From a virus (taxonomy: Duplodnaviria; Caudoviricetes): 29,429 nt of DNA. This document shows positions 8,362-28,707 of the stretch, piece after piece (position 1 is the stretch's first letter; each line of letters starts with the position of its first letter). Position numbers and translations under genes: made by a program. Location: IMG/VR virus record IMGVR_UViG_3300006114_001327, positions 1 through 29,429 of that record; one strand, given 5' to 3'. The notes under the pieces were generated by a model. That model searched no databases and was not told the DNA's origin. It saw nothing but the letters and a program-made list of their open reading frames with translations.

Positions 8362-8543
8362 GATAAATTCCTTTCATTAAAAAATTCATAATATTTTTCA
8401 AGCGTAATTTCTATAGAATTAAATCTAACTTGACAATAAGGACATTCTCTTCTTCTTTCTACATAATGCATATGTTGATTCGGATCATAAAGTTTTTTAG
8501 AATCAACCACCGAAGTAATGTTATCACAAGTAATACAATTCAC
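8358..8543 (-). CDS. Zinc-ribbon protein resembling the NrdR N-terminal domain
   Basis: CITC...TSVVDS...RRRECPYC..RFNSIE. ORF track starts at 8570; GTG 8543 has a GGAGG SD and overlaps the upstream stop. Confidence 0.7.
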   Translation of the reverse strand: MNCITCDNITSVVDSKKLYDPNQHMHYVERRRECPYCQVRFNSIEITLEKYYEFFNERNLS

Positions 8544-8917
8544 AAAACCTCCCAAGGGAAAACAATCCACTTATCTAAAACTTTTTTTTCACCAAAATAA
8601 TTAAGCGGAGGTAAACTTGCCTGATGGTAAAGCACCCCAAAATCAGCAGCCGGATTCCTTTTCATGATACCGAATAAAGTTTCACCAGTATCATAAATTT
8701 CATCAATAACCAAAACTCGGCAATCCACCGGCAATTTTTCTTCTTTGTCCATAGCTATCATAGGTAATTTAAGCCTGTGGGAAATATAGACGGCGGGAAT
8801 CAAACCACCCCTAGTAACCCCTGCCACTAAATCATATTTTTTATGAATCTGACTAATTAATTTTTGGCAAAGTTCTTCAAACTGATACCAACCAATAACT
8901 TCTTTTTCTTTTTTCAA
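8540..8917 (-). CDS. Type I purine phosphoribosyltransferase (xanthine-guanine PRTase-like)
   Basis: GVTRGGLIPA, PRPP-binding VLVIDEIYDTGETL and C-terminal WIVFPWE, as in Gpt-like enzymes. Confidence 0.88.
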   Translation of the reverse strand: MKKEKEVIGWYQFEELCQKLISQIHKKYDLVAGVTRGGLIPAVYISHRLKLPMIAMDKEEKLPVDCRVLVIDEIYDTGETLFGIMKRNPAADFGVLYHQASLPPLNYFGEKKVLDKWIVFPWEVL

Positions 8918-10081: not shown

Positions 10082-10462
10082 TTATTTTTTATTTTTTTGT
10101 AAAAGTTCCTGAACCTCTTCTGGACCTAAGCGTTCATGGTGTTTTCTTGCTTCGTGTTGGGCTATTCTTTTCTTTTCTTTTTGCAAAAACTTTTTATGCT
10201 GGCTTATGGTTTTTTTAGCTTGGGTTGGTAGTTGCATTTCTGGGTCTACTATCTTAAGCATAAAATTGCCTTCTTGGACATATCTTGTGGATGCTCTTTT
10301 GATGAGTCTTTTTAAAAAAGTTGACTCTACTTCATAAGTAGAAAATCGGTAACCACATTCTTTATTAAGGCACCACCTCCTTCGCCATTGTAAATTTTGC
10401 ATAGGAGCAGTAAAAGATACTTTAGTTTCCGACCCACATTTATAACATTTAATTGCCGCCAT
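10082..10462 (-). CDS. Zinc-ribbon protein (NrdR N-terminal-like) with basic C-terminal extension
   Basis: CYKC...TKV...RRRWCLNKECGYRFSTYE. Confidence 0.7.
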   Translation of the reverse strand: MAAIKCYKCGSETKVSFTAPMQNLQWRRRWCLNKECGYRFSTYEVESTFLKRLIKRASTRYVQEGNFMLKIVDPEMQLPTQAKKTISQHKKFLQKEKKRIAQHEARKHHERLGPEEVQELLQKNKK

Positions 10463-12405
10463 TATTTAACCTCCCCCCAACTTTTACCAAATTCCGCATC
10501 CACCAGTAAAGGCACTTTTAATCCTGGTATCTTAGTCATCAACTCAATAATTTCCAATACCGCCTCTTTTACTTCTGGTTTATGTTCTATAGAAAAATCT
10601 AATTCATCATGAACCGTTAAAAGCATAGGAACTGTGTCCATTAATCCGGCTTTGTGAATAGAAACCATAGCCATCTTAATAAGATCAGCCGCCGACCCCT
10701 GTAATAATCTATTAAGTGCTTTGTGGGTAAAGGATCTTCTAATTTTAGGACCCCATTTTTCAAGCGCCTGATCATAAGGCAAAAAAGTTTCGTTGTCGTG
10801 GTTTGAGCTTGGTTCATATAAATTGAATCTTGCGTATCTGCCGGCAAAAGTTCTTATATAACCTCTTTGGCTTGCTCTTTGACTGGCCAAATTATATATA
10901 TCTTTGACAAAAGGGAATTGGTTATGATATTGGTCAAACAAAGGTTTGACTTCTGAAAGTTCTCTTCCTAAATTTTTAGCAAGCGCCTTTTCTCCCATAC
11001 CATAAACCAAGCCAAAATTAATATTTTTGGCTTCTTTTCTTGGGACTCCTGTAAGGTTGGAAACAAACTCATGAAAATCCGTTTTAGGGTCCGTGTAGTA
11101 CTGACTTCTAGCGAGTTCAGCCGACTCTCCGTTTCCATAATGAACTAGCATTCGGTATTCAATTTGACTATAGTCAAATGACCCCCAAGAAGCATGACCT
11201 AAATCAGGCACAAAAATAGATCTAATAAGCGGTCCTAATTCAGGATCCCTAGCAGGAATATTCTGTAAATTAGGGGTGGAGGAACTAAATCTGCCGGAAA
11301 CCGTTCCGGAGTCGTCTGATCTTAATGGATGGAATTGCCCAAAAAGTCTTCCATTTACATGGCTTTCTAAAATGTAAGACCTAATAAAAGTATCTCTTGC
11401 TTTAGTTAATTTACGACACTCAGCAACCTCCGGCAAATTGTCCTCAAGCCACTTAGACCTAAAAGAAGGCTTGCCAGTATTGGTGGTTGGATAGATAAGA
11501 TTTCTTTTTTTAGCCAATTTTTCTACATCTGCTGCTGCGTAAATATTTAAACCATTTAAAGATTTTTCAATAGTTTCTATTCTTTGAGATAAAGCATCAT
11601 CAGCAAGCCTAGCCTTATCAAGATCAACCCTAACCCCATGTTTTCTCATTCTAAATAAAATAGGTAAAAGAGCGGATTCTAACTCAAAAAGAGAAATAAG
11701 ATCCGCCTCCTCTAATAAAGGTTTTTGGCAGTTCCATACTTTTATAGCTAGTGAAGCGTCGGCTTCTGCGTAAGGGCCCACCAAGGCAGGTGGGCATCTC
11801 CAGATATTGCTTGCCTGTTTTCTATCGGGTTGTCCTCCATAGGCCCTAGATGCCCATTTATAAAGGCTATCCTCCGCCTTACTTTCGCCAAGGTATTTCT
11901 GAGACAGTGCATTGAGTGAATAGCTGAAAGCATGTTCATCAAGTAAAGGTTCGGCAATTTGGATATCCCTAATAGCTCCTCTAACTTCAATACCAAGGGT
12001 CGAGAGCCAGCCGATATCGTATAGTGCGTTTGCAAAAATCTTTTCCGTTTTTTCATTTTCTGTAGTTTCACGGATAAACTTAAGTACGGATTCCCTATCC
12101 TGGTTTTCCCCAACTGTGTGTCCGATCGGAAAGTACCAGGCCTGGTCTTTTGTGGCCACTGAGATGCCCGCAACAAAACCTTCACCGGTGGCCCAACCTG
12201 GGCCTGTTTCAAAAATTTTTGGGTCATATGTCTCCGTATCTATAGCAACCTGGTCAATTCCGGTCAAATTCGGAAAGTCTCGGGGTTTCCAACCTGTTTC
12301 TGGTATTGCCGGCATAACTCTTGCCATTTTTTGCTTCTCACCGGTTTTAACCGGTTTTATGGTTTCTACGTCTTGCCAAAAAAGACCGTCCGAGTCATGT
12401 CTCAT
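10462..12405 (-). CDS. polA: Family A DNA polymerase with 3'-5' exonuclease domain and no 5'-3' exonuclease
   Basis: ExoI IDTET, SGRFSS..PNLQNIP, motif A DYSQIEYR, motif B RKEAKNINFGLVYG (Phe at the E. coli 762-equivalent position), motif C TVHDE. Confidence 0.96.
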   Translation of the reverse strand: MRHDSDGLFWQDVETIKPVKTGEKQKMARVMPAIPETGWKPRDFPNLTGIDQVAIDTETYDPKIFETGPGWATGEGFVAGISVATKDQAWYFPIGHTVGENQDRESVLKFIRETTENEKTEKIFANALYDIGWLSTLGIEVRGAIRDIQIAEPLLDEHAFSYSLNALSQKYLGESKAEDSLYKWASRAYGGQPDRKQASNIWRCPPALVGPYAEADASLAIKVWNCQKPLLEEADLISLFELESALLPILFRMRKHGVRVDLDKARLADDALSQRIETIEKSLNGLNIYAAADVEKLAKKRNLIYPTTNTGKPSFRSKWLEDNLPEVAECRKLTKARDTFIRSYILESHVNGRLFGQFHPLRSDDSGTVSGRFSSSTPNLQNIPARDPELGPLIRSIFVPDLGHASWGSFDYSQIEYRMLVHYGNGESAELARSQYYTDPKTDFHEFVSNLTGVPRKEAKNINFGLVYGMGEKALAKNLGRELSEVKPLFDQYHNQFPFVKDIYNLASQRASQRGYIRTFAGRYARFNLYEPSSNHDNETFLPYDQALEKWGPKIRRSFTHKALNRLLQGSAADLIKMAMVSIHKAGLMDTVPMLLTVHDELDFSIEHKPEVKEAVLEIIELMTKIPGLKVPLLVDAEFGKSWGEVK

Positions 12406-13367
12406 GCTCTAATACCTACTATAATGCCTTTTAGTTTATCCATACCATAAAAAGGACAGGGGCCGGGGTACTTTGAAAAGTCCGCTTTGATGGCTTCATT
12501 AAGTACTAGTGAAATCATTTCAGCCCGATATTTACCATCCGGTAAAGTAACTCCTCCAACGGACGCCGTGTGCTCACCATCCATAGTATGGACCCCTTCT
12601 TCATTAAATACCACCACCGGAAACTTCGGATCAGGGTGGAAATGAGCAATCTTTCTAACGGCATCTAATAATTGACCTGGAACTAAAGGCAAACTTTCAT
12701 ATTCATAGTCACCAAATAATTTATCTATATCCGGCCACTCAGAACTTAAAGGATTAACCCTAATCCAAAAATTATCATAAAGAAAAAATAAATGGTTATC
12801 ATCTATCAAAACCTCTTTCGGATCTTGGTTAATTCTAATAAGTTCATCAACAGCAGCCGTAGGAAGAGCCATATTAATAGGTGTTGGAAAAGGTAGGCTT
12901 ACTAAAATTACGTTATTGGTTGCATACATTTTTTCATTCTTAAAAAGAATAGAGCATGACCAAGGTCTGGATGCGTCCTGGCTAATAAATGGCTTTAGTC
13001 TTTTTAAAGTTCCCACAAAACCAACTTTAATTGGATATTTTTCTTTATTAGAAGGTCCTTCCATTTTTGGATAACTTTCATGAGCCATTAATGGTAACAT
13101 AGCTTTAAAAGAGGCTCTTTTAATAATAAGTTTTCTATCCGTTACCGTAAGCACAGGAGCCCCCTCACAGGCATCAACCGCCCTAAGAAATCTATCCGCC
13201 GGTACAGTTGCGCTTATGCCTTTTACCTGGCTACATTCAGCATCAATAGCAACCGCCTTTCCATCCATTCCCTGAATTCTGCCATCATAAATATGAATAT
13301 GTGTAAAAGCAGGAATTAAATCTTTTTCAGCAACCGTTCCAGCAACTAATTTAATAATTTCTAACAT
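12402..13367 (-). CDS. DNA polymerase III beta subunit (sliding clamp)-like protein
   Basis: About 321 aa with a repeated alpha/beta pattern and DnaN-like segments (ATVPADRF, FISQDASRP, MYATN, WPDIDKLF). ORF track starts at 13448; ATG 13367 with AGGA SD is more likely. Confidence 0.72.
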   Translation of the reverse strand: MLEIIKLVAGTVAEKDLIPAFTHIHIYDGRIQGMDGKAVAIDAECSQVKGISATVPADRFLRAVDACEGAPVLTVTDRKLIIKRASFKAMLPLMAHESYPKMEGPSNKEKYPIKVGFVGTLKRLKPFISQDASRPWSCSILFKNEKMYATNNVILVSLPFPTPINMALPTAAVDELIRINQDPKEVLIDDNHLFFLYDNFWIRVNPLSSEWPDIDKLFGDYEYESLPLVPGQLLDAVRKIAHFHPDPKFPVVVFNEEGVHTMDGEHTASVGGVTLPDGKYRAEMISLVLNEAIKADFSKYPGPCPFYGMDKLKGIIVGIRA

Positions 13368-13374
13368 ATTTGTC

Positions 13375-14313
13375 CTATAGATCGAAAAGTGAATCTTGGT
13401 AAAGAGAGTTTGGTTCAGGCAATACTTTAAGCCACTCAACAATTTCAAGCCCCGTCATCATACGCCTGGCCATATGTTCATACTGAAGTTGTTCAATAGT
13501 TAATCCATGAAGCGCCGCTCTTTCTGCTATGACTTCTACCATGTGTTTTGGTATTGTGGTTATGTGAGAACCCATTTCATACCGATTAGGGTTTTCATTA
13601 CTAGTAGCCATTTCCATTAATTTTCCATTATGCAAAAACTTTATTTTTCCCATGACTGCTGCGTAAAGCCAGGATGCTGAATCTACCGAGTACCAGGGGA
13701 CCTGTCTTAACATGTTTTCACCAGTAGCCGCTAATCCATGAGTTTTCTTTCCAGGTAGTTTTCGGTGAACATAATTAGACCAAGCAAGACGGCTTTTTTC
13801 CGGTAAGTCATTTCTAGGAGAAACACAAATATAATCCGCCATATCAGAAACCTCAAACATCCTAGCCTCAGATTCATTTTGGTGAAAAACGGGTAAAACT
13901 ATATTGCCAAATTCTTTAGTTAATACTTTAAAGTTTTCGTCAGAAGTTTTAATTGCCTGAGTAATTTCTTCTTCACCTGCCGTTACTCCTGGTGATCCTG
14001 GAATGACATCTAAGTTTATTAACCATATCTGGATATGACTTGGAATAAGTTTCATAACATCCTGGTAGGTAGCAATTAAATCCTGAAGCTCTACTTTTTT
14101 ACCTTTAGACCAAGCCGTAAAAGCACCGGAGTCAAGCATTATTTCTTTAACCGAGCCACCTTCTAAACCACAAAGTTCAGCCCACCTCTTGGCTTCTTTG
14201 ATGTAGTGGTCATGGCAAGAGCAAAGCCTATAAGTAAACCCTCTTGCCAATTTTTCTTCTACCTCAGCAGTAGCCCCAATAGTACCAGAGAAAAAATATT
14301 TAACTTTAGACAT
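13375..14313 (-). CDS. dpdA: DpdA-like 7-deazaguanine DNA transglycosylase (TGT fold)
   Basis: TGT-family motifs MLDSGAFT, NLDVIP, PVFHQ, THGLA and YSVDSASW, directly downstream of queF-folE-queC-queD-queE. ORF track start is 14328. Confidence 0.85.
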   Translation of the reverse strand: MSKVKYFFSGTIGATAEVEEKLARGFTYRLCSCHDHYIKEAKRWAELCGLEGGSVKEIMLDSGAFTAWSKGKKVELQDLIATYQDVMKLIPSHIQIWLINLDVIPGSPGVTAGEEEITQAIKTSDENFKVLTKEFGNIVLPVFHQNESEARMFEVSDMADYICVSPRNDLPEKSRLAWSNYVHRKLPGKKTHGLAATGENMLRQVPWYSVDSASWLYAAVMGKIKFLHNGKLMEMATSNENPNRYEMGSHITTIPKHMVEVIAERAALHGLTIEQLQYEHMARRMMTGLEIVEWLKVLPEPNSLYQDSLFDL

Positions 14314-14749
14314 TGCGCCAGTACTCAAAAGTTGGCCAGAAAGGAATTCCGCCTCTTGGGGTAAACTGTCCTTCTACTTTTAAATATTCCGGATCCAATA
14401 AATCAACAAGCGCCTGAGCAATCCTAGTAACACAGGACTCATGAAACTCTCCTACTTGTCTAAAAGAACCTAAAAATAATTTCCAAGATTTAGATTCCAC
14501 GCAAAATTCCCTAGGAATATATTCAACCACAATAGTTGCAAAGTCAGGCTGCCCCGTTAGAGGACAAAGAGAAGTGAATTCAGGAGCAATAATTTTAATC
14601 TTGGTTTCAGCATGAGCAAAATTATTTGCTGTTTTAAGTTTCATAGGATTAGGAAACTTTTCCAATAATTTAATATCAGCACCATCATAGTGATAGTCGC
14701 TTTCTTTTCCTAATGCTTTTAAATGTTCTGTTTTTGATAGTTTTTCCAT
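14306..14749 (-). CDS. queF: NADPH-dependent preQ0 nitrile reductase, unimodular (type I) QueF
   Basis: EFTSLCPLTGQPDFA (catalytic Cys/Asp), QueF motif ESKSWKLF, FHE and PRGGI. Confidence 0.93.
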   Translation of the reverse strand: MEKLSKTEHLKALGKESDYHYDGADIKLLEKFPNPMKLKTANNFAHAETKIKIIAPEFTSLCPLTGQPDFATIVVEYIPREFCVESKSWKLFLGSFRQVGEFHESCVTRIAQALVDLLDPEYLKVEGQFTPRGGIPFWPTFEYWRNV

Positions 14750-14750
14750 T

Positions 14751-15308
14751 TTAGTTCCTGATTAAGTTTAACAATTCTTCTTTAGATGACCGATCCCATT
14801 CAAATAAACCTTTCATAGCACTAGTTACCGTGCTGGATCCTTGTCTTTGAATGCCTCTTGATTCCATGCATAAATGCCTACATTCCATAATAACCCCGAC
14901 TGCTTTTGGATTTAAAGCATTTTGAATAGCCTCCGCTATCTGGCTAGTTAATCTTTCTTGTACTTGTAATCTTCTTGCATAAATATCTACTACTCTTGAA
15001 AGTTTAGAAAGTCCTACAATTTTACCATCCGGAATATAAGCCACATGAGCCTTTCCAAAAAATGGTGCCAAATGATGCTCGCAGTGACTATAAACTGGAA
15101 TATCTTTCACCAAAATAATTTGGTCATAATTTTCCGCCCCATCCTCAAAAGTTTTTAATATTTCTCTTGGGTCTTGTTTATACCCATGAGACCAATGCTC
15201 CCATGCTTTGACCACTCTTTTAGGGGTTTCTAATAATCCACCTCTAAAACTATCTTCCCCGATAACAATAGAAAGTAAATTTCTAATAACCGTTTCTTTA
15301 TCAGACAT
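14751..15308 (-). CDS. folE: GTP cyclohydrolase I
   Basis: [47 protein letters not shown] track start is 15332. Confidence 0.96.
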
Positions 15309-16098
15309 TAGCATACCCCTTAATAGTTTCAATCAAAGTATCGTAAAAACCAAGTGTTTTGTCATAGTTAGGGGTATCCGGCAAAGCCATAAGATTTTCA
15401 TGCCAAGCCCTAACCACTAAAGGATCCGGTAAATCCGCTTCCAGAAAACCCTGAGCCCTTAATACATTAGAATGGTTTTTATCTTTCGGAGGATATTTGC
15501 CATCATAAGAAGTGTGGGTATAGGCAAGCGCCGGATAACCGCCGGCATCCGCCATTCTAGCAATGCTTTCAGCTTTAGTATCATTTATTAATGGTGCCAC
15601 TACATGTAATCGATAATCATTTCCTAATGACTGATTGACCATGATCTCAAAGTCGGATCTAAATGCTTCCGTGCAATCCGGATAGTTAGCATTGTCCGCT
15701 TGACAAATACCGGTAACTAAAATAGAGCAGCCCATAACTATAGCACGATTAGCGGCGACAGTTAAAAAAAGCGTATTTCTCATAGGCACAAAAGTAAGCT
15801 CAACCCTGTCCCCAATAATCTTATCCATTTCTTGGTAGTTGGTGTACTGTTCTAATGCTTGGTTTGGGTCGGTGAGTGGAGATTTTCCTTTTAGGATAGG
15901 CCCTAATTCTATAACCTCATGGCTTTCAACACCGGCAATTCTTGCTACTTTTTTAGCCGCTTCAATTTCTATTTTATGCCTTTGATTGTAATCAAAAGTT
16001 ACAGCATGAACTTCTTGGTATAATTGCTTGGCGAGAAACAAGCAGGTTGTCGAATCCTGTCCTCCGGACAAAATGACCATCACTTTTTCTTTTTTCAT
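15301..16098 (-). CDS. queC: 7-cyano-7-deazaguanine synthase
   Basis: [27 protein letters not shown]. Confidence 0.94.
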
Positions 16099-16100
16099 TT

Positions 16101-16550
16101 CTATTCCTTTATATAAATTGCTGAATTAGCGCCATGTTCTTTTACTTCTACACTCACGAGGCGACAGCGTGGTGTGTAACCTTCGTCTTCTAGCCACTTT
16201 TCTGCTAAAAGATAAACATAATGAGCAAATGCCTCACACCCAGTATCCGGAAAAATAACTAAATCAATAATTTCTTTTTTAGCTGCTTCCCTAAACCATT
16301 CTATTTCCGGATCATCCTGGGCTACTATTAATGTATGGTCAAAAAGATCTTCTAATATTTTCTTTAATTGTTTTAGTCCTCCAAAATCTACTACCCAATT
16401 TCTTTCATCAAGCAAAGCAGCCTCAAAGATAAATTTAAAAGACATGGCATAACCATGTATAAATTTACAGTGGCTATTGGCTCGCCATTGCCTAAAAGCA
16501 GTAGAAAAGCCTAGTTCATGTCCGTATGTTTTAGTGGATTGGTAAGTCAT
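16101..16550 (-). CDS. queD: 6-carboxy-5,6,7,8-tetrahydropterin synthase
   Basis: [29 protein letters not shown]. Confidence 0.92.
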
Positions 16551-17248
16551 GGTAGTCCTATTAATTTGTGCATTTGAATAGTTAATCGATAATCGTGTTT
16601 CATGACAAGCGTAGCAGCTAACTTTGTATTAGCGTAAGTTTTATCCGCATCCACATCCCCATCCGGCAAATACTCCATCATAGGCTGTAGCCAGATAGTT
16701 CCTTCTGCTGGACGAAAAAGTTTTAATGGTTTTTCTTTCACCTGAGTGGAAACATTCGGCAAACCATCTTCTAAATCAGTATCACCTACTTTAGTAATAT
16801 ACTTCCAATCTTTACAGTATTTTTTAATAGCTGGGTGGACAGATCCCGTTTTAGGAGAACAAACAATATGAAGTTTATCCGCTAAAGAATCAAGTTCTTC
16901 TTGCCATAAAGTTCCAGCGGTTTCTATTTGAATACTGTAATCATAAGCAAATAACTTTAAGCAAAGTTCATAAAGATTCTGCCTAAAAGGCTCTCCTCCA
17001 GTAATAACTATAAGATTTGTAGGATACTTAATACATTCACTAACAATTTCTTCAGCCGTTAAATGAGTAGTAGAAGATTCAAAATCCGTATCACAAAAAT
17101 GACAACGAAGATTACATCCAGCAAGCCTAACAAAAATAGCAGGCCTTCCAGAAAAAGGTCCTTCACCTTGAATAGTATAAAAAATTTCTTGGACCCAAAA
17201 ACTATCCGGATTTAAGTCCTGTTTTAATATTTTATTCTTCCCAAACAT
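16547..17248 (-). CDS. queE: 7-carboxy-7-deazaguanine synthase (radical SAM)
   Basis: EIFYTIQGEG, CNLRCHFCDT (CxxxCxxC), ITGGEP, IETAG, VCSPK, QMHK. ORF track start is 17332; ATG 17248 (MFGKN) is more likely. Confidence 0.94.
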   Translation of the reverse strand: MFGKNKILKQDLNPDSFWVQEIFYTIQGEGPFSGRPAIFVRLAGCNLRCHFCDTDFESSTTHLTAEEIVSECIKYPTNLIVITGGEPFRQNLYELCLKLFAYDYSIQIETAGTLWQEELDSLADKLHIVCSPKTGSVHPAIKKYCKDWKYITKVGDTDLEDGLPNVSTQVKEKPLKLFRPAEGTIWLQPMMEYLPDGDVDADKTYANTKLAATLVMKHDYRLTIQMHKLIGLP

Positions 17249-17630
17249 CCCTAAGCTCCCATACATTAAGTTTTCTTTTTTTGCCTTCTTCCACCGTAAT
17301 TTTCCGAAATCCAACTTTTTCATAGAAACCATTGGACGGCAAATTTTCAGGACACTTAGCCCTAACTGGTTTGGTAAGCATATTAATCATGGCTTTACCT
17401 AAACCCAATCCTCTTGCTGCTGGAGTAACTAATATTTCGTAAATAACGGTGACCCCGTCTTTTCTAATATGAAAATGACAAAAAGACCCGGTTTCTCTAT
17501 CCACCAACATATGTTTCTTTTCTATAACACCTTTAAAATCCCAACCTCCAATAAAGCCAAGTTCTTCCACATGCTTATTAGCTGCTTTTTTAATTAAAGG
17601 TATGTCTTCTAATGTTGCAAATTCTATCAT
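17232..17630 (-). CDS. GNAT-family N-acetyltransferase
   Basis: Acetyl-CoA-binding motif A ILVTPAARGLGLGKAM and motif B SNGFYEKVGF; overlaps the queE start. Confidence 0.87.
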   Translation of the reverse strand: MIEFATLEDIPLIKKAANKHVEELGFIGGWDFKGVIEKKHMLVDRETGSFCHFHIRKDGVTVIYEILVTPAARGLGLGKAMINMLTKPVRAKCPENLPSNGFYEKVGFRKITVEEGKKRKLNVWELRDVWEE

Positions 17631-17639
17631 AATTAATCC

Positions 17640-17665
17640 AAAAAAGGAGCGGGTTCCCCCGCCCC
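17640..17665 (-). terminator. Rho-independent terminator
   Basis: Minus strand GGGGCGGG-GGAA-CCCGCTCC-TTTTTT just after the DUF932 stop. Confidence 0.85.
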
Positions 17666-17668
17666 AAA

Positions 17669-18637
17669 CTAGATACCAACTAGTTCGTCTGCTAAATTAC
17701 TAGCTAATTCTTTAGTTGCCAAACCATCACCAAACCAAGCCCTATCCATACGAGTATCGTTAGAACGGCCACGGTGGTGATCAACAAACTCCGTAACCGC
17801 ATTAACTAATCCCCAAACAGTGTCTTTAGCGGATTCAAGTTCTGAACCTTTTCCGCGGCCTTGAAATAAATCTAAAAGCGTGCTAACTGTTTTATCTGAA
17901 ACCACTATCTCACCATCATTGCCTTTATAAGAAGCGATTTCACTGAAATAATCTTCGGCATCGGAAGTTGTAACTTTAGTTTCGCTCCAAGCCTCTACGT
18001 GCTTCATAAAATTATCCCAAGAAGTCGCGGCAATGCCTAACTGTGCTTTTACTTTGGCATCGTTAAAAGTAGTTCGGTGGTTAATTCTAACAACTCTACT
18101 ATTACCTTTAGCCTCATCCATAGCAAACCCTAAAGTATTATTGCATACCACACGGATAGAAGTAAACATTGCCGTAGTGGACATAGACCCATCACAGGCC
18201 GTACCTAATAGTAAATAACCTTTAATGGTATCGTCAAGAACTTTAGCCTCTTTACCCATATTAGCAAGTGCCCAGTATTTTCTACCGCCTTTTAACACGC
18301 CAGCTGTTTCTAACTGAAAACCTGCTTTTTCTGTTAAGTCACGATAAAATTCTAAAACTTCTTTGGGCTGGACTACTTGATAGGCGTTACTAACCACAGC
18401 AAGAGGAGTCAAACTATCGGAACGAATTAAAACTTTACGATCCGGAACAATACCTATTTTGGCGCCAATAGAAAATAAAGCTGGTGTTTCTTCTAAAGAA
18501 AAATCCATGCCCGCCTCAACCTGCCAAGTTTCAATAGGCGCACCAGCCTCTAACTGCTGGCCTAAACCGTGCCATGGGGTTTCCCCCACATAAGCAATAG
18601 CCGCACGCCCTTTAGTAAAATCTAGTTCATGGCTCAT
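17669..18637 (-). CDS. DUF932 family phage/plasmid protein (TIGR03299-like)
   Basis: TPWHGLG, YQVVQP, ETAGVLKGGRKYWALA, TSIRVVCNNTL, WGLVNAVTEFVDH, AWFG. Confidence 0.9.
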   Translation of the reverse strand: MSHELDFTKGRAAIAYVGETPWHGLGQQLEAGAPIETWQVEAGMDFSLEETPALFSIGAKIGIVPDRKVLIRSDSLTPLAVVSNAYQVVQPKEVLEFYRDLTEKAGFQLETAGVLKGGRKYWALANMGKEAKVLDDTIKGYLLLGTACDGSMSTTAMFTSIRVVCNNTLGFAMDEAKGNSRVVRINHRTTFNDAKVKAQLGIAATSWDNFMKHVEAWSETKVTTSDAEDYFSEIASYKGNDGEIVVSDKTVSTLLDLFQGRGKGSELESAKDTVWGLVNAVTEFVDHHRGRSNDTRMDRAWFGDGLATKELASNLADELVGI

Positions 18638-18639
18638 AA

Positions 18640-18924
18640 TTATTTGCCCTTTCTAGCAGTTACGCGAACTTCTGGGTAAGTCGTAGTTTTTGTATGAGCA
18701 CGCATAAATTGAGGGGAAAGTTTAGCGCGGACCGCATCCATATCTAAACTATCTCTACTTTTTTCTGTTACATTAGCATCATACATAAGACCTTCATGGG
18801 AACCTAAACCTAAAGCAATTAATTGCTCTTTAAGTTTTTTCTCTTCTGCCTGTAAAGCAGCGATTTCGGCTTTTAGAATGCCGAGTTGGTCAACAAGTGT
18901 TAAAGTGGTATCTATCGTTTGCAT
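18640..18924 (-). CDS. Phage hypothetical protein with N-terminal coiled coil
   Basis: VDQLGILKAEIAALQAEEKKLKEQL; AGAAAGGATAGAAAG leader. Confidence 0.75.
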   Translation of the reverse strand: MQTIDTTLTLVDQLGILKAEIAALQAEEKKLKEQLIALGLGSHEGLMYDANVTEKSRDSLDMDAVRAKLSPQFMRAHTKTTTYPEVRVTARKGK

Positions 18925-18984
18925 CTTTCTATCCTTTCTAGTTTAAAAGTTAACAGTTGCTTTTTATTTGCTACTGTTAAATTA

Positions 18985-19012
18985 ATTATAAATATATTTT
19001 TGAACAAATCAA
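18985..19012 (-). promoter_or_regulatory. Sigma70-like promoter
   Basis: TTGATT-N16-TATAAT followed by TAATTTAAC, with an AT-rich upstream region. Confidence 0.65.
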
Positions 19013-19053
19013 CAACTTTTTAAAAATATATTTATTGTATTTATTTATACGGA

Positions 19054-20592
19054 TCATATTGGTAATTGAAAAAACTTATTGCTTTGAGGTTGAACTATAT
19101 GCAAGTTTTTCTTAGCTCTTGTTATGCCTACATACATGACTCGTCTTTCTGAATCTGGTTCTAATAAATATTCTGAGTGCGTCTTTCGAGCTTGGTCCAA
19201 AAATAAAACCACATTGTCTGCCTCTCCGCCTTTTACCCCGTGAATAGTATTTACATGAACTTCCGGTCTATTAACAAACATTTCAACCCCATAAGTTCTA
19301 AGTATGGATAAATAGTATTCAATATCATCCATGGGAATTTCTTTAAAAGCATCGTGCCAAATAAGGTCCGTAAGTAAACCAAAGTTTGCTTTTAGATCTT
19401 CTATTGTGTAAAGAACACCGTCTTCCATTTTACTTAATGCCTTAAAGCCTCTTTTAACTCCATGCCCTACTTTTAACTGTTCATAAATTTTTTTAATGTA
19501 AATACCGGGCTGAGGATTGCCTGCTCTTAATTTTTCCCAGCTTTTAATTGCCTGTAAATGGTTTTGATTGATTGAGGAGGCTCCTTGCCGTTTAAGAAAA
19601 GGTATTCCAAGAAGACGTAAATTTTTTTCAATACCAGGCAAAGCGTAAGTATTTCTTACAAGTATCAACCAAGATCCTTTTCTAGGATCTACTGGTATGG
19701 CGTCTGGGCTATTATGAAATTCTATGGAACCTAATTCATTTCTAGGTTCTACTACTTTATGATATCTTTTATTAATTTGACCTATTATTTTTTGACTTAA
19801 ATCAAATATAACTTTAGGCATTCTGTGGCTTATGCCTAAAATTTCTTTTTCTCCTTCTAAAGTCAAAAAACTATCTATATCGGCCCCCGACCAAGAATAA
19901 ATAGCCTGGTCATCATCACCAGCAATGTAAACTCTTTTGCACTGAGAAAAACCGCTTTTTAATACTTGCCACTGTAAAGCAGAAAGATCTTGGGCTTCAT
20001 CTATAAATGCAACTTCACAAGGCACAAAAATTTGAGAATAAAAAAAGGTTTCAAGTATACCAGTAAAGTCTATTACTCCTGTATCTAATCTATATTGGTC
20101 ATAAGCATCTGCTATTTGTTTAAACATGTGCCAAGTAAATTCAGGGTTAACTAATTCGTAATAAATTTCTTCTAAACTTTTTAATTTGACTCTTGCAAGT
20201 GCTGCATAAAAAAGCATTTGGTCACCTAAACTACTTCCCGCTGCTAAACCAGTTGACTCATCTGTAACAGCACTAAAAGGCATTTGCATAACTTTTGAAA
20301 ACTCGTCCATATTGATTTGACTAATTAAATCCGTTTGCTTTAATTGCAATTCTCTATAACAAAGAGCATGAATAGTTTTAAAATAAACTAAGTCCGTTTT
20401 TAAAAAATCAAATTTTTCAGTTGTTCTTTTTATGGCTTCTTGTACGGCTTTTCTAGTAAAAGATACAAAAGCAATATTTTGAATAGGTGTACCATTTTGA
20501 ATTTCTTGATCCAATAAATTTAAAAGCGCCGTGGTTTTACCGCATCCGGGCGCACCAAGTATTACTTTTTGCTCACCACTTCCAATCTTCAA
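19054..20592 (-). CDS. UvrD/Rep-like superfamily 1 helicase
   Basis: GAPGCGKT, VSFTRKA, TIHALC, IDEAQD, AGDDDQAIY, TIHGVKGGEAD, YVGITRAK. Confidence 0.93.
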   Translation of the reverse strand: MKIGSGEQKVILGAPGCGKTTALLNLLDQEIQNGTPIQNIAFVSFTRKAVQEAIKRTTEKFDFLKTDLVYFKTIHALCYRELQLKQTDLISQINMDEFSKVMQMPFSAVTDESTGLAAGSSLGDQMLFYAALARVKLKSLEEIYYELVNPEFTWHMFKQIADAYDQYRLDTGVIDFTGILETFFYSQIFVPCEVAFIDEAQDLSALQWQVLKSGFSQCKRVYIAGDDDQAIYSWSGADIDSFLTLEGEKEILGISHRMPKVIFDLSQKIIGQINKRYHKVVEPRNELGSIEFHNSPDAIPVDPRKGSWLILVRNTYALPGIEKNLRLLGIPFLKRQGASSINQNHLQAIKSWEKLRAGNPQPGIYIKKIYEQLKVGHGVKRGFKALSKMEDGVLYTIEDLKANFGLLTDLIWHDAFKEIPMDDIEYYLSILRTYGVEMFVNRPEVHVNTIHGVKGGEADNVVLFLDQARKTHSEYLLEPDSERRVMYVGITRAKKNLHIVQPQSNKFFQLPI

Positions 20593-25636: not shown

Positions 25637-26914
25637 TTACCTGTTTAAATTTGTAATTGCTTCTTTTACATAAGGATAACCATATTTTGCTGCTTCATAA
25701 ATTAATGGCGGTGCTGAAAGTATGGCGCCTGCGCCTATTGTGTAAGGATTGGGGATTGCCATGAGAGCACCCCCGGCACCACCCATCATTCCCATAACTC
25801 CAGGAATAGTTTCACCTTTATTGAACCTCTGGGCTCCTTCGGCAAACTGTGCTGCTGAAAGACCTCCACCTAATATCCCTAAACCCGGTATTTTATTAAT
25901 ACCATAACCCAATTTTTTAAGTAAAGACATTTCTTCCGGTTTAAACATTTCCGTTTTTTCCACCGCTCTTCTAAGCACCTCTTCCGCTCTTTGTGCTTTG
26001 GTCATTGCCTTACTTTCTCCGGGAGTTACATGACCGGGAGCACTCATTTTTTCATGCTTTAATCTCCACTCCGCGGCTTTTCTCAAAGCATCATCATAGG
26101 CTTCTTGTAAAGACATTACTTTTTGCTCTGCTTCTATGTGTGCTGGGGATTTATAATTTAAATCTAAAGTGGTTGGCAATTCTAAACCAAGTCCTCTTCG
26201 GTTAGTTAAATTGCTTACCTGAAACTGACTTCTCATCCATTCCGGCATACTTTTTGTTTGCTGGTATAGTCTTGCTGATTCGGTGGAAGATTTTCCTGCT
26301 GGTGAAAGATCCCCAACTACTTTTTCTTGCCATCTAGTTCCGGACATACTTGGGTCATACTGTTTATTGATAGTTTCTGGTACGTATTGCTGAAGGTTTA
26401 ATTTTGCCTGTTCTAACTGTTTGCTTATGGTTTCTACCTGTTTATTGGCATTAAGCATTTCGTCCATTAAAGTATTAACATTTGCACTTTTTAGTGCTTG
26501 TTCTTTTGCTACTTTTTCTTGCTGAACATTAGCTTCACTTTCAGCTAATGCTGCATTTTTCTGTAAGTTTTCATATTTTTTCTGGGATACCTGTGAGGCT
26601 GGGGCTAATCTTCCCATTTTTGAACCTATAAATGCCCCAGGAATAGCGGCCACTATATCTTCAGGCAAAGTTGATTCTTCTGGTTTTTTAGATTCCGTAT
26701 CTTCATAACCTTTTAAAATGGTATTAGGGTTGATACCAAAAATAGGATCCAATTCTTCTATTTTTGGACCTTTATCTTCTTCCATTTGGTTAGCGCCACT
26801 ACTAGAAAAAATAGGGTCTAAACCAGTAATACTAGGTTCACTAATAGTTACCGAACCTTTAGGCTCAGGAGAACTACTGGTACCTCTAATTTCTATCGCT
26901 TCTGGAATAGGCAT
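25637..26914 (-). CDS. Putative internal virion / ejection protein
   Basis: 425 aa, coiled-coil centre, Gly/Ala-rich hydrophobic C-terminus; last gene before the terminator. Function inferred from composition and position. Confidence 0.55.
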   Translation of the reverse strand: MPIPEAIEIRGTSSSPEPKGSVTISEPSITGLDPIFSSSGANQMEEDKGPKIEELDPIFGINPNTILKGYEDTESKKPEESTLPEDIVAAIPGAFIGSKMGRLAPASQVSQKKYENLQKNAALAESEANVQQEKVAKEQALKSANVNTLMDEMLNANKQVETISKQLEQAKLNLQQYVPETINKQYDPSMSGTRWQEKVVGDLSPAGKSSTESARLYQQTKSMPEWMRSQFQVSNLTNRRGLGLELPTTLDLNYKSPAHIEAEQKVMSLQEAYDDALRKAAEWRLKHEKMSAPGHVTPGESKAMTKAQRAEEVLRRAVEKTEMFKPEEMSLLKKLGYGINKIPGLGILGGGLSAAQFAEGAQRFNKGETIPGVMGMMGGAGGALMAIPNPYTIGAGAILSAPPLIYEAAKYGYPYVKEAITNLNR

Positions 26915-28707
26915 TATTGTGCTCCTGGACTATATCTTTTGGTTAATTGATTATAGTAACTATTGTAATTTTGAAGAATACTTTGGTAAGGAGAATCGGT
27001 TCTAGTCCAAAAAAGAGAAGGTTTACTGCCTTCTGGAAGTTTATTGGTGTAGTCACTATAACCTTTATACATTTTTTCAGCAGTATCCATATTTAAAAAT
27101 TGATGCTGAGTCCAATATTTCAAGGACGCAGCCGTATCTGCTATACTTCCCATTGGCGCTTGGTATAGTCTTGCGTCATTATCGGTTGGATTAGTTCCTA
27201 ATAATTTACCCATTTTTTGAACATTGGCAAGGAACTGGCTTGCTAAAATTTGGGATGCTCTTCTTAGGTCCTGTCTATCCGTTTTACTTAAATCTTTCAT
27301 TTCAACAAATTTATCAACCGCCGGAATGGATATCTGAGTTCCGCCAGCCTGAACACCTTCTTTAACAGCCGACGCAGCAGCATTTAACCAACCTTGCTCC
27401 TGTAACAATCCAAAAATAGATTTTTGTCTTTTACCTTCTTTTACGTAATTCACATCTTTATTAATGATACTGTCTAGTTCTCTTAATTGATTTTTTGCCT
27501 CTCCCGTAAACTGCGGGTCCATGGCGACTAAAGCCGGTATTTTTCCAATTTTGGGATCATTATAAAGTTTGTCCTCAGCATTAATTCTTTCTTTGGTTAT
27601 TTCCGATCTTGCCGCTAAAGGCACATCAGAACCAAACCCTATGTTTCCGGTGCTTGCTACCTGTGTTACGGGCTCTTTAAAGTAAGGTGTCGGATCTAAA
27701 GGATTACCTTTGGCATCTTTCATACCAAACGCCAAATGAGGACCGGTGGATTTTCCGGTGGAACCTAATGTTCCAACAGGCGTGCCAGCTTCAATCTTGC
27801 TACCTTCTTTAACATTAATATCTTTTAAATGACCGTAAAAAGTAGACAAACCTTGGTCATTTTTAACTTCTACATAATTACCAAACCCTGGAACTTCTCC
27901 TGCTTTAACCACGGTTCCATTTATTAAAGAATTAATAGGGGTGCCAAGTTTTCCTCCAAAATCTAGGTGACTGTGCATTTCCATTTTATCTTTATTAAAA
28001 GGATCTGGTCTTTGACCAAAACCACTACTTAAAGTTAATCCAGGGGCAAGCATAGGCGTTAAATTAGAAGTTGTAGGTGCTGGTGCTGGTTCTTGCCCCG
28101 GCACGGTATAAGCGCCTTTAGGAACATATTTTAAAGCGCCTTCACCATACTTACCAATAATATCAGCAACTTTAACCCCTCTTTCTAAATCTCCCTGAAC
28201 TAATTTTGCTCTTTCTACGTCCATGGAATAGGCATTTTTCATGCTTTCCGCTAGTTTTGGACTCAAAACGGATAAAGCCATATAGTTTTCAGGCGTAATT
28301 TTAGAAAAAGCATCTGTCGGTAAATTACCAGTTGACACCATGTTAGCGGCAGTTTTGGGATCGGTTCCAAATATATTGCCGAGCATCCGTAGAGCTTTTG
28401 CTTGGTTACCTAGTTCGTATTCTTGTCCGGCAAGCTGAGCTCTCATCATAGCAATAGAAGGTGCCTGTTGCTCTTGTTGCTCTTGCTGTCTTCCTAATTC
28501 AGTAGCAGACCTTCCTATGGCTTCTCCAACATTACCAGTTTTTCCTGGGTCAAGTAACTGTCCTGCTACACTGAACCAGTTGGGCTGATTTCTTTTTTCT
28601 AAAGAAGAAACCACATCATTAATAGCCGTTAAATATTTTTGACGATATTCATCATCTCCACCAAGCATAGGAGTTGGGGGTAAAGTTGTTCCGGTTGGAA
28701 GTGCCAT
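26914..28707 (-). CDS. Putative internal virion protein with an M23 (LytM) peptidase-like domain
   Basis: SSGFGQR..PF, HSHLD (HxxxD), GFGNYV, FYGHL, GSTGKSTGPHLAF and DPTPYF, embedded in a helical protein. Confidence 0.8.
   Translation of the reverse strand: MALPTGTTLPPTPMLGGDDEYRQKYLTAINDVVSSLEKRNQPNWFSVAGQLLDPGKTGNVGEAIGRSATELGRQQEQQEQQAPSIAMMRAQLAGQEYELGNQAKALRMLGNIFGTDPKTAANMVSTGNLPTDAFSKITPENYMALSVLSPKLAESMKNAYSMDVERAKLVQGDLERGVKVADIIGKYGEGALKYVPKGAYTVPGQEPAPAPTTSNLTPMLAPGLTLSSGFGQRPDPFNKDKMEMHSHLDFGGKLGTPINSLINGTVVKAGEVPGFGNYVEVKNDQGLSTFYGHLKDINVKEGSKIEAGTPVGTLGSTGKSTGPHLAFGMKDAKGNPLDPTPYFKEPVTQVASTGNIGFGSDVPLAARSEITKERINAEDKLYNDPKIGKIPALVAMDPQFTGEAKNQLRELDSIINKDVNYVKEGKRQKSIFGLLQEQGWLNAAASAVKEGVQAGGTQISIPAVDKFVEMKDLSKTDRQDLRRASQILASQFLANVQKMGKLLGTNPTDNDARLYQAPMGSIADTAASLKYWTQHQFLNMDTAEKMYKGYSDYTNKLPEGSKPSLFWTRTDSPYQSILQNYNSYYNQLTKRYSPGAQ

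Follow-up and report, generated by a model that had tools for sequence, protein, structure and literature searches.

What does an acetyltransferase gene do at the head of a phage operon for a 7-deazaguanine DNA base? The question is raised by IMG/VR virus record IMGVR_UViG_3300006114_001327 (Caudoviricetes), a linear record from a freshwater phage, estimated to be 52% complete, whose whole length of 29,429 nucleotides is referred to here as the window. On its minus strand the genes follow one another in the order GNAT-queE-queD-queC-folE-queF-dpdA, and then sliding clamp and polA. The initial annotation of this locus had suggested that the GNAT acetylates preQ1, giving 7-(acetamidomethyl)-7-deazaguanine in DNA. 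Our results support this suggestion through fusions and neighbourhoods with TGT (transglycosylase) genes, through pairing with QueF or YhhQ, and through the likeness of the GNAT to gp48 of phage PaMx11; the base itself is a prediction, and the acyl group could differ. The sequence shows that one run holds all genes of a preQ1 pathway, a DpdA and a GNAT that is intact, and that the GNAT family is linked to TGTs. We give a probability of roughly 0.68 to the whole mechanism, in which the GNAT would N-acetylate dPreQ1 after its insertion, and the DNA of this phage probably holds the acetylated base.

FolE, QueD, QueE and QueC convert GTP to preQ0, which QueF reduces to preQ1. The preQ0 set is complete in the window by Pfam, PHROGs and NCBIfam; FolE, QueC and QueF lie above curated NCBIfam cut-offs, and QueD and QueE are strong by Pfam and PHROGs. 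The catalytic Cys and the ESKSxKL motif that had been pointed out in QueF are present as C62 and ESKSWKLF (residues 85-92), together with D69 (the PD aspartate), H103-E104 and C106 (HESC). The protein reaches 134 bits on TIGR03139 (cut-off 86.9), and matches B. subtilis QueF (4F8B, E 5e-33) far above the QueF-L 5JYX (E 5e-4). By these measures the window QueF is a true preQ0 reductase and not a QueF-like amidinotransferase, as had been proposed, and a QueF-L/dG+ reading was rejected on the same comparison. According to the available text of PMC10516641, the QueFs of dPreQ1 phages have the motif E(S/L)K(S/A)hK(L/Y)(Y/F/W), phage QueFs with this motif complement E. coli delta-queF, and the DpdA of such a phage inserts preQ1. 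There was no match to ArcS among the scanned open reading frames (ORFs) of the window, no family-level ArcS search having been made, and Pfam found no Gat domain on the window QueC.

The window DpdA keeps three aspartates, D61 (LDSGAF), D102 (NLDVIP) and D211 (SVDSAS), which we take to correspond to the catalytic aspartates of TGT. By tblastn it matches 175 phage records, the best being the Nanhaiviruses Pan1, R5C and R26L (about 46-50%), followed by the phiSM type (29%, 2e-15) and the 9g type (25%). By analogy with its homologues it would insert preQ1. The palindromes CGCG, GGCC, AGCT and TGCA occur at 0.41-0.54 of expectation, which is ordinary avoidance, and no DpdA target motif emerges.

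The GNAT scores 34.2 bits on PF13508 (cut-off 27), and an Atlas feature search with it returned GNAT clusters at 0.96-0.97. A direct locus search with the window sequence gave no viral relatives; a small alignment as query found seven, and a profile of nine homologues found 587 representatives at E<=1e-10, that is, several hundred clusters. Across 158 family sequences the acetyl-CoA motif R73-x-x-G76-x-G78, N100 and Y103 are kept, residues which we take to have their GNAT roles here, along with the family-specific motifs R56-x-D58, K92-C93-P94 and G116-K-K-R119-x-L-N-V-W124. Cys93 is retained in 93% of the family, and the isoelectric point exceeds 8 in 93% of 172 family cores, a figure without a control set. 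Judging by these features, the window GNAT is a member of a distinct, basic family.

This family is linked to TGT-fold genes. The motif scan yielded 25 viral, 113 genome and at least 120 metagenome loci. Our counts refer to 182 loci with a family member and flanks, the window and loci from earlier searches included, after loci without a family match (L034; 10 of 80 genome and 3 of 80 metagenome loci) and those with 300-base flanks only (33 genome and 40 metagenome loci) had been dropped. A TGT-fold gene is present in the fetched DNA of 29 of 35 viral loci (25 of 31 after removal of four duplicates), being fused in 10 and within 1 kb in 18, as well as in 44 of 70 genome loci and 52 of 77 metagenome loci; after dereplication at 90% it is found in 106 of 158 clusters. 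The association with TGT genes, proposed as a check, thus held for the 25 of 31 distinct viral loci, with the partner fused or nearby. The TGTs concerned are DpdA1-like, DpdA4/DUF6610 and of the type found in BRC (BREX-Related Capture) defence. Many of the misses are short contigs or have their TGT beyond 8 kb, and 10 of 12 BRC-like genomes without a TGT in the fetched flank carry one elsewhere. Of the six viral misses, one has a DpdA elsewhere with queF adjacent. Two more are fragments in which queF is close by, another two belong to thymine-hypermodification clusters, and the remaining one, a 735-kb phage, is a genuine exception. A BRC-like layout was seen in 57 of the 70 genome loci; from their gene content, these bacterial loci would be the BRC systems of PMC12839542.

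Fusion to DUF6610 was found in 17 of the 48 longest of the 158 members (10 N-terminal, 7 C-terminal), and in P0054 the GNAT is fused with a phrog_887/DpdA-like domain. DUF6610 is described in PMC10516641, in the text available, as the DpdA4 of HVTV-1, a dPreQ1 virus. We took this identity from that source because in our own comparisons with DpdA shallow profiles gave no match (probability 0.2), and deeper local ones only a weak match over the HxLG...SxD stretch (E 7e-4). In a quick tree, mostly unresolved, the window GNAT clusters with three DpdA4-linked members (support 94), and it seems to have joined a DpdA1-like operon. The occurrence of a DpdA4-linked GNAT in such an operon suggests that what the GNAT recognises is the product in DNA, and not any one partner enzyme. 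Other fusions were also observed: ParB-like domains are joined to the GNAT in P0011, P0017, L016 and L029 (phages with dpdA and yhhQ directly after), and in the 735-kb phage (L014:9935-10798) a 287-aa protein encoded amid repeat-motif genes has the GNAT as its N-terminal part.

Several lines link the family to preQ1 itself. In a whole-record search of 30 viral records, QueC was found in three, all of them with QueF over cut-off, so that with the window the pairing is four of four; three further records have QueF without QueC. A rough, redundant baseline from annotated phages is 51 records matching QueF against 225 matching QueC. In G035, queF and GNAT stand together, away from dpdA and queC, and yhhQ, encoding a preQ0/preQ1 transporter, adjoins 7 of 35 viral loci. 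The two source loci aside, neither the window nor any other fetched locus showed a DpdM homologue. Within the window, in a contig 52% complete, there was no PF03692 (YkgJ/CxxxCxxCC) domain and no tblastn match to the DpdM of phiSM or Pan1, and a formyltransferase (PF00551, PurN-like) was detected neither there nor in the three other records with GNAT and QueC. The expectation that GNAT homologues would accompany queF and exclude the known methyl- and formyltransferases was thus borne out as far as these loci go, the partner being QueF or YhhQ. A divergent QueF-like protein of 114-150 aa was seen in seven BRC-like loci (L199:6099-6464, L229, L189, L166, L237, L087 (Chloroflexus islandicus isl-2) and L119); it keeps the Cys, has ETK[AS]L and no RGG, and appears nearer to QueF than to QueF-L by phmmer.

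Of the characterised enzymes compared, the nearest is gp48 of PaMx11, which acetylates 5-aminomethyl-dU in DNA oligos using acetyl-CoA (Lee et al., PMC8989533, in the text available). When a family member was compared with 50,697 phage records, the matches that followed the family itself were the acetyltransferases of PaMx11 and its relatives. On the family profile gp48 reaches 63.9 bits, the best of 177,635 PDB sequences reaching 46.5, and direct BLASTP gives 35% over 54 aa (E 3e-8). Both enzymes are small phage GNATs, and the group acetylated by gp48 is a major-groove CH2-NH2 on a DNA base; its substrate, in contrast, is a thymine derivative made by gp46/47/49, no homologues of which were found among the window ORFs. 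Since gp48 is without K92-C93-P94 and GKKRxLNVW, it is to be regarded as a sister and not as a member of the family, and in the quick tree it is an outgroup on a long branch. By analogy only, the window GNAT would work like gp48. Apart from this, divergent family GNATs occur without TGT in two clusters of the order TET/JBP-GNAT-GATase-amino acid:DNA transferase (PF18724)-P-loop protein (L020:7088-10387, L021:2627-5606), which are likely to be a route to an acylated aminomethyl-pyrimidine. Their neighbours gave no phmmer match to PaMx11 gp46/47/49, and the amino acid:DNA transferase was seen only by Pfam.

The three cultured Nanhaiviruses with the nearest DpdA all have queF and dpdA, and differ in what accompanies them. 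Whole-record searches placed a GNAT two genes after dpdA and no DpdM in R5C, and neither GNAT nor DpdM in R26L; these two are cultured phages of one genus and one host species. Pan1 has no GNAT and carries, just before dpdA, a DpdM homologue (Pan1_55, L280:6029-6679) with 40% identity to phiSM DpdM (E 4e-47), and this Pseudanabaena phage probably carries mdPreQ1. The gp79-gp88 region of Dinoroseobacter phage vB_DshS-R5C resembles the window in its QueD, QueC, FolE, QueF, DpdA (47%) and family GNAT. Its GNAT, unlike that of the window, has 111 aa and is N-terminally shorter, without the first ~30 positions of the family profile (L012:8655-9282, gp87-gp88); the overlapping 103-aa gp87 does not score on that profile. 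Literature searches returned no report on the DNA chemistry of R5C.

In the mechanism that we favour, the phage would make preQ0 from GTP via FolE, QueD, QueE and QueC, and QueF would convert it to free preQ1, as family assignment and known chemistry indicate. DpdA would then exchange some guanines in replicated DNA for preQ1, as its homologues suggest, and the GNAT, acting after insertion, would transfer acetyl from acetyl-CoA to the exocyclic CH2-NH2 of dPreQ1 in DNA. The product would be 2'-deoxy-7-(acetamidomethyl)-7-deazaguanosine (calculated MH+ 338.146). The GNAT may therefore be seen as an optional capping gene, gained in a variable slot ahead of queE, with a role parallel to those of DpdM (methyl) and DpdN (formyl). 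The likely benefit would be protection of the genome against restriction, or against defences that recognise the free amine; we infer both acetyl as the transferred group and this protection.

Two tailoring enzymes of dPreQ1 are described by Cui et al. 2023 (PMC10516641, in the text available): DpdM, giving mdPreQ1 in Cellulophaga phiSM and Vibrio VH7D, and DpdN, giving fdPreQ1 in Flavobacterium immuto_2-6A. The window shares with these phages the FolE-QueD-QueE-QueC-QueF-DpdA core and, by prediction, one extra amine-capping enzyme, which here is a GNAT instead of a YkgJ-type methyltransferase or a PurN-type formyltransferase, and whose predicted product is acetylated. BRC defence, in which a GNAT/TGT module has been described computationally (PMC12839542), is alike in having the GNAT beside or fused to a TGT. 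BRC loci have HerA and PglZ-like genes, with BrxC-, BrxA- and BrxB-like ones, whereas the module of the window belongs to a phage that has a preQ1 pathway of its own along with a DpdA1-like enzyme; the window gave no match to the bacterial neighbour clusters, and its GNAT and DpdA no PADLOC match. What the BRC paper puts forward, in the text available, are acyl and 7-deazaguanine self-marks in general, with no mention of acetyl-preQ1 by name. An acetyl-preQ1 DNA base was not found in literature searches, in agreement with the initial annotation, which knew of none; an earlier prediction is possible, as subscription papers lay largely outside the search. The main texts of Cui 2023 (PMC10516641, as available) and Hutinet 2019 do not contain the word 'acetyl', only Cui et al. 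was found among literature from 2023 on for fdPreQ1, mdPreQ1, DpdN or DpdM, and the available text of the TGBSV paper (bioRxiv 10.1101/2020.02.27.968263) does not mention the acetyltransferase. At the level of predicted genes, the idea of an acetylated dPreQ1 is well supported by genomics; the GNAT-TGT link is already in print for BRC (PMC12839542). If true, the idea would mean a new natural base in DNA, a third dPreQ1 cap beside methyl and formyl, a function for the several hundred clusters of this GNAT family, and a concrete chemistry for the proposed BRC self-mark.

All seven genes from GNAT to dpdA lie where the initial annotation had placed them, on the minus strand, and the que genes overlap or abut (queE/queD -4 nt, queD/queC +2, queC/folE -8, folE/queF +1, queF/dpdA -8, overlaps being negative). 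The run is contiguous as described, but dpdA is not its end, for it continues after a 7-nt gap into the sliding clamp and polA. The overlap of the GNAT with the queE start was also found, and amounts to 17 nt with ATG 17248 as start codon; this start was chosen because alignments of relatives begin there and because the alternative upstream ATG at 17266 is lost through G>A in runs X12 and X15. This part of the record is not an artefact of assembly, since a single 21-kb contig from the independent lake run X12 covers 12400-19100 with 27 differences and no gaps. In the RNA-library contigs X15 and X16, dpdA, queF, queC and the GNAT/queE junction are represented in part, at a depth of 2-4, which is no proof of transcription. 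The terminator reported to separate the run from the upstream gene is represented by a predicted terminator-like hairpin, with an 8-bp GC stem (17665-17646), a 4-nt loop and T6, in the 38-nt gap between the DUF932 gene and the GNAT (fold z -3.7). It needs the correction that only ~15 nt separate it from the GNAT start; across the region four such sites were found and 6.0 are expected by chance, i.e. there is no excess.

Eleven related IMG/VR contigs (11-72% complete) keep the que-dpdA cluster at 59-88% identity. In L001 and L003-L011, the gap between DUF932 and queE holds unrelated 60-70-aa ORFs; the view that the ORFs in this slot are GNAT remnants was rejected. L002-L011 have a helix-turn-helix-like extension in the folE-queF gap, in frame with the queF that follows and giving ORFs of 276-281 aa; R5C has a similar open frame before queF.

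A number of findings weigh against acetylation of dPreQ1 as set out above. None of the 11 related contigs carries the GNAT, eight of them spanning the slot, so that the gene is dispensable. QueF occurs in only 6 of the 30 viral records, most carriers being without QueF and QueC, so that 24 of 30 would need host preQ1. Among bacterial BRC-like carriers, which are incomplete metagenome-assembled genomes, QueF lies over cut-off in only 13 of 50, so that preQ1 is only a candidate substrate for the family as a whole; the 13 include two unpublished genomes, G072 (L103) and G076 (L107), which also enter the genome-locus tallies. No TGT was found in the record of the 735-kb phage, nor in three of three small genomes tested that carry the GNAT. 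The loci counted were also those from which the neighbour profiles had been made, and these profiles took their names from representatives only, so that the counts describe linkage and are no independent test. Moreover, other tailoring genes could lie outside a contig that is 52% complete, the family motifs missing in gp48 mean that acyl donor or mechanism may differ, and the stretch from the hairpin to the GNAT start showed no sigma-70-like promoter.

Among other explanations, it is unlikely, though the least so, that the GNAT acylates preQ1 with another group (succinyl, propionyl or aminoacyl), or that it acylates the free base before insertion by DpdA. Cys93 and the C-terminal GKKRxLNVW are family-specific and missing in gp48, a GNAT-TGT fusion would also allow channelling of a free base, and Cui 2023 (PMC10516641, in the text available) leaves open whether DpdN acts on preQ1 or dPreQ1. 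Against this, the canonical acetyl-CoA motif is intact, the family is basic, and gp48 uses acetyl-CoA on DNA (PMC8989533, in the text available); a GNAT that clusters with DpdA4-linked members and yet stands beside a DpdA1-like enzyme is easier to explain if the product is recognised in DNA than if TGT specificity had changed to match. Slightly less credible is a role of the GNAT in the TGT module on a target other than the preQ1 amine, such as a protein (DpdA or a host factor, for example) or another base, which would leave plain dPreQ1 in DNA. Phage GNATs such as Rac do acetylate host proteins (PMC7824862), many bacterial carriers are without a QueF over cut-off, a few members are without TGT, and the BRC base may stay dPreQ0 according to the available text of PMC12839542. 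This explanation is opposed by the repeated pairing with three TGT subfamilies, with QueF alone and with YhhQ, and by the GNAT standing as an alternative to DpdM in the Nanhaiviruses. Lastly, the gene could be a recent passenger, poorly expressed behind the terminator or without substrate, with dPreQ1 or dPreQ0 as the base, as in relatives without GNAT. The slot holds unrelated 60-70-aa ORFs instead of a GNAT in eight of eight spanning relatives, and the position of the hairpin without a promoter-like site points the same way. The same barrier, however, would silence queE to polA too. In addition, five other clusters hold the GNAT whole at 80-83% identity, two of them with DVWEE, the ending created by the queE overlap, the X12 strain differences within the gene are one silent and one V-to-I change, and its GC content overall and at third codon positions (GC3) is like that of the flanking genes. 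We consider this last explanation improbable. Returning to the acetylation of dPreQ1, a broader version appears rather doubtful: the family would be a general capper of aminomethyl bases that, with any TGT subfamily, writes 7-(acetamidomethyl)-7-deazaguanine. This base would serve bacterial BRC-like defence loci as their self-mark, and phages such as the present one would carry the GNAT to imitate that mark or to conceal the free preQ1 amine from defences that recognise it.

Features of the run and its upstream border in the window (position 1 is the first letter of the record)
Feature	Position	Strand	Evidence
DUF932 / TIGR03299 gene, preceding the hairpin; landmark for the slot in relatives	17669..18637	-	profile matches
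Predicted terminator-like hairpin + T6	17638..17665	-	stem 17665-17646; z -3.7
GNAT acyltransferase, 132 aa, pI 8.9, candidate dPreQ1 N-acetyltransferase	17232..17630	-	Pfam Acetyltransf_7/_1/FR47 over cut-off; family conservation; neighbourhoods
QueE, radical SAM CDG synthase	16547..17248	-	phrog_2076 1e-43; TIGR04349 8e-26
QueD, CPH4 synthase	16101..16550	-	PF01242 1e-16; phrog_2389 3e-44
QueC, preQ0 synthase, no fused Gat domain	15301..16098	-	PF06508 1e-47; TIGR00364 154.5 bits (cut-off 150.3)
FolE, GTP cyclohydrolase I	14751..15308	-	PF01227 1e-70; TIGR00063 over cut-off
QueF, unimodular NADPH-dependent preQ0 reductase	14306..14749	-	TIGR03139 134 bits; 4F8B vs 5JYX; motifs
DpdA (DpdA1-like) DNA guanine transglycosylase	13375..14313	-	phrog_887 2e-41; tblastn; aspartate motifs
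DNA polymerase sliding clamp, same run	12402..13367	-	phrog_947 5e-51; 7-nt gap after dpdA
Family A DNA polymerase, same run	10462..12405	-	PF00476 2.5e-59

Elsewhere the window encodes, by Pfam and PHROGs profile matches, a terminase and a helicase-primase block in addition to the family A polymerase. A 125-aa ORF at 8540-8917 (minus strand) has a phosphoribosyltransferase domain (PF00156, 3e-8), such as is fused to FolE in L037, and may serve in the recycling of guanine released by DpdA. Small minus-strand ORFs at 6205-4897 and 7534-6836 share the words MTANELA and MLRQQA.EI and form a paralogous set, and a 597-aa protein encoded at 26914-28707 (minus strand), with a peptidase M23 domain, is probably virion-associated.

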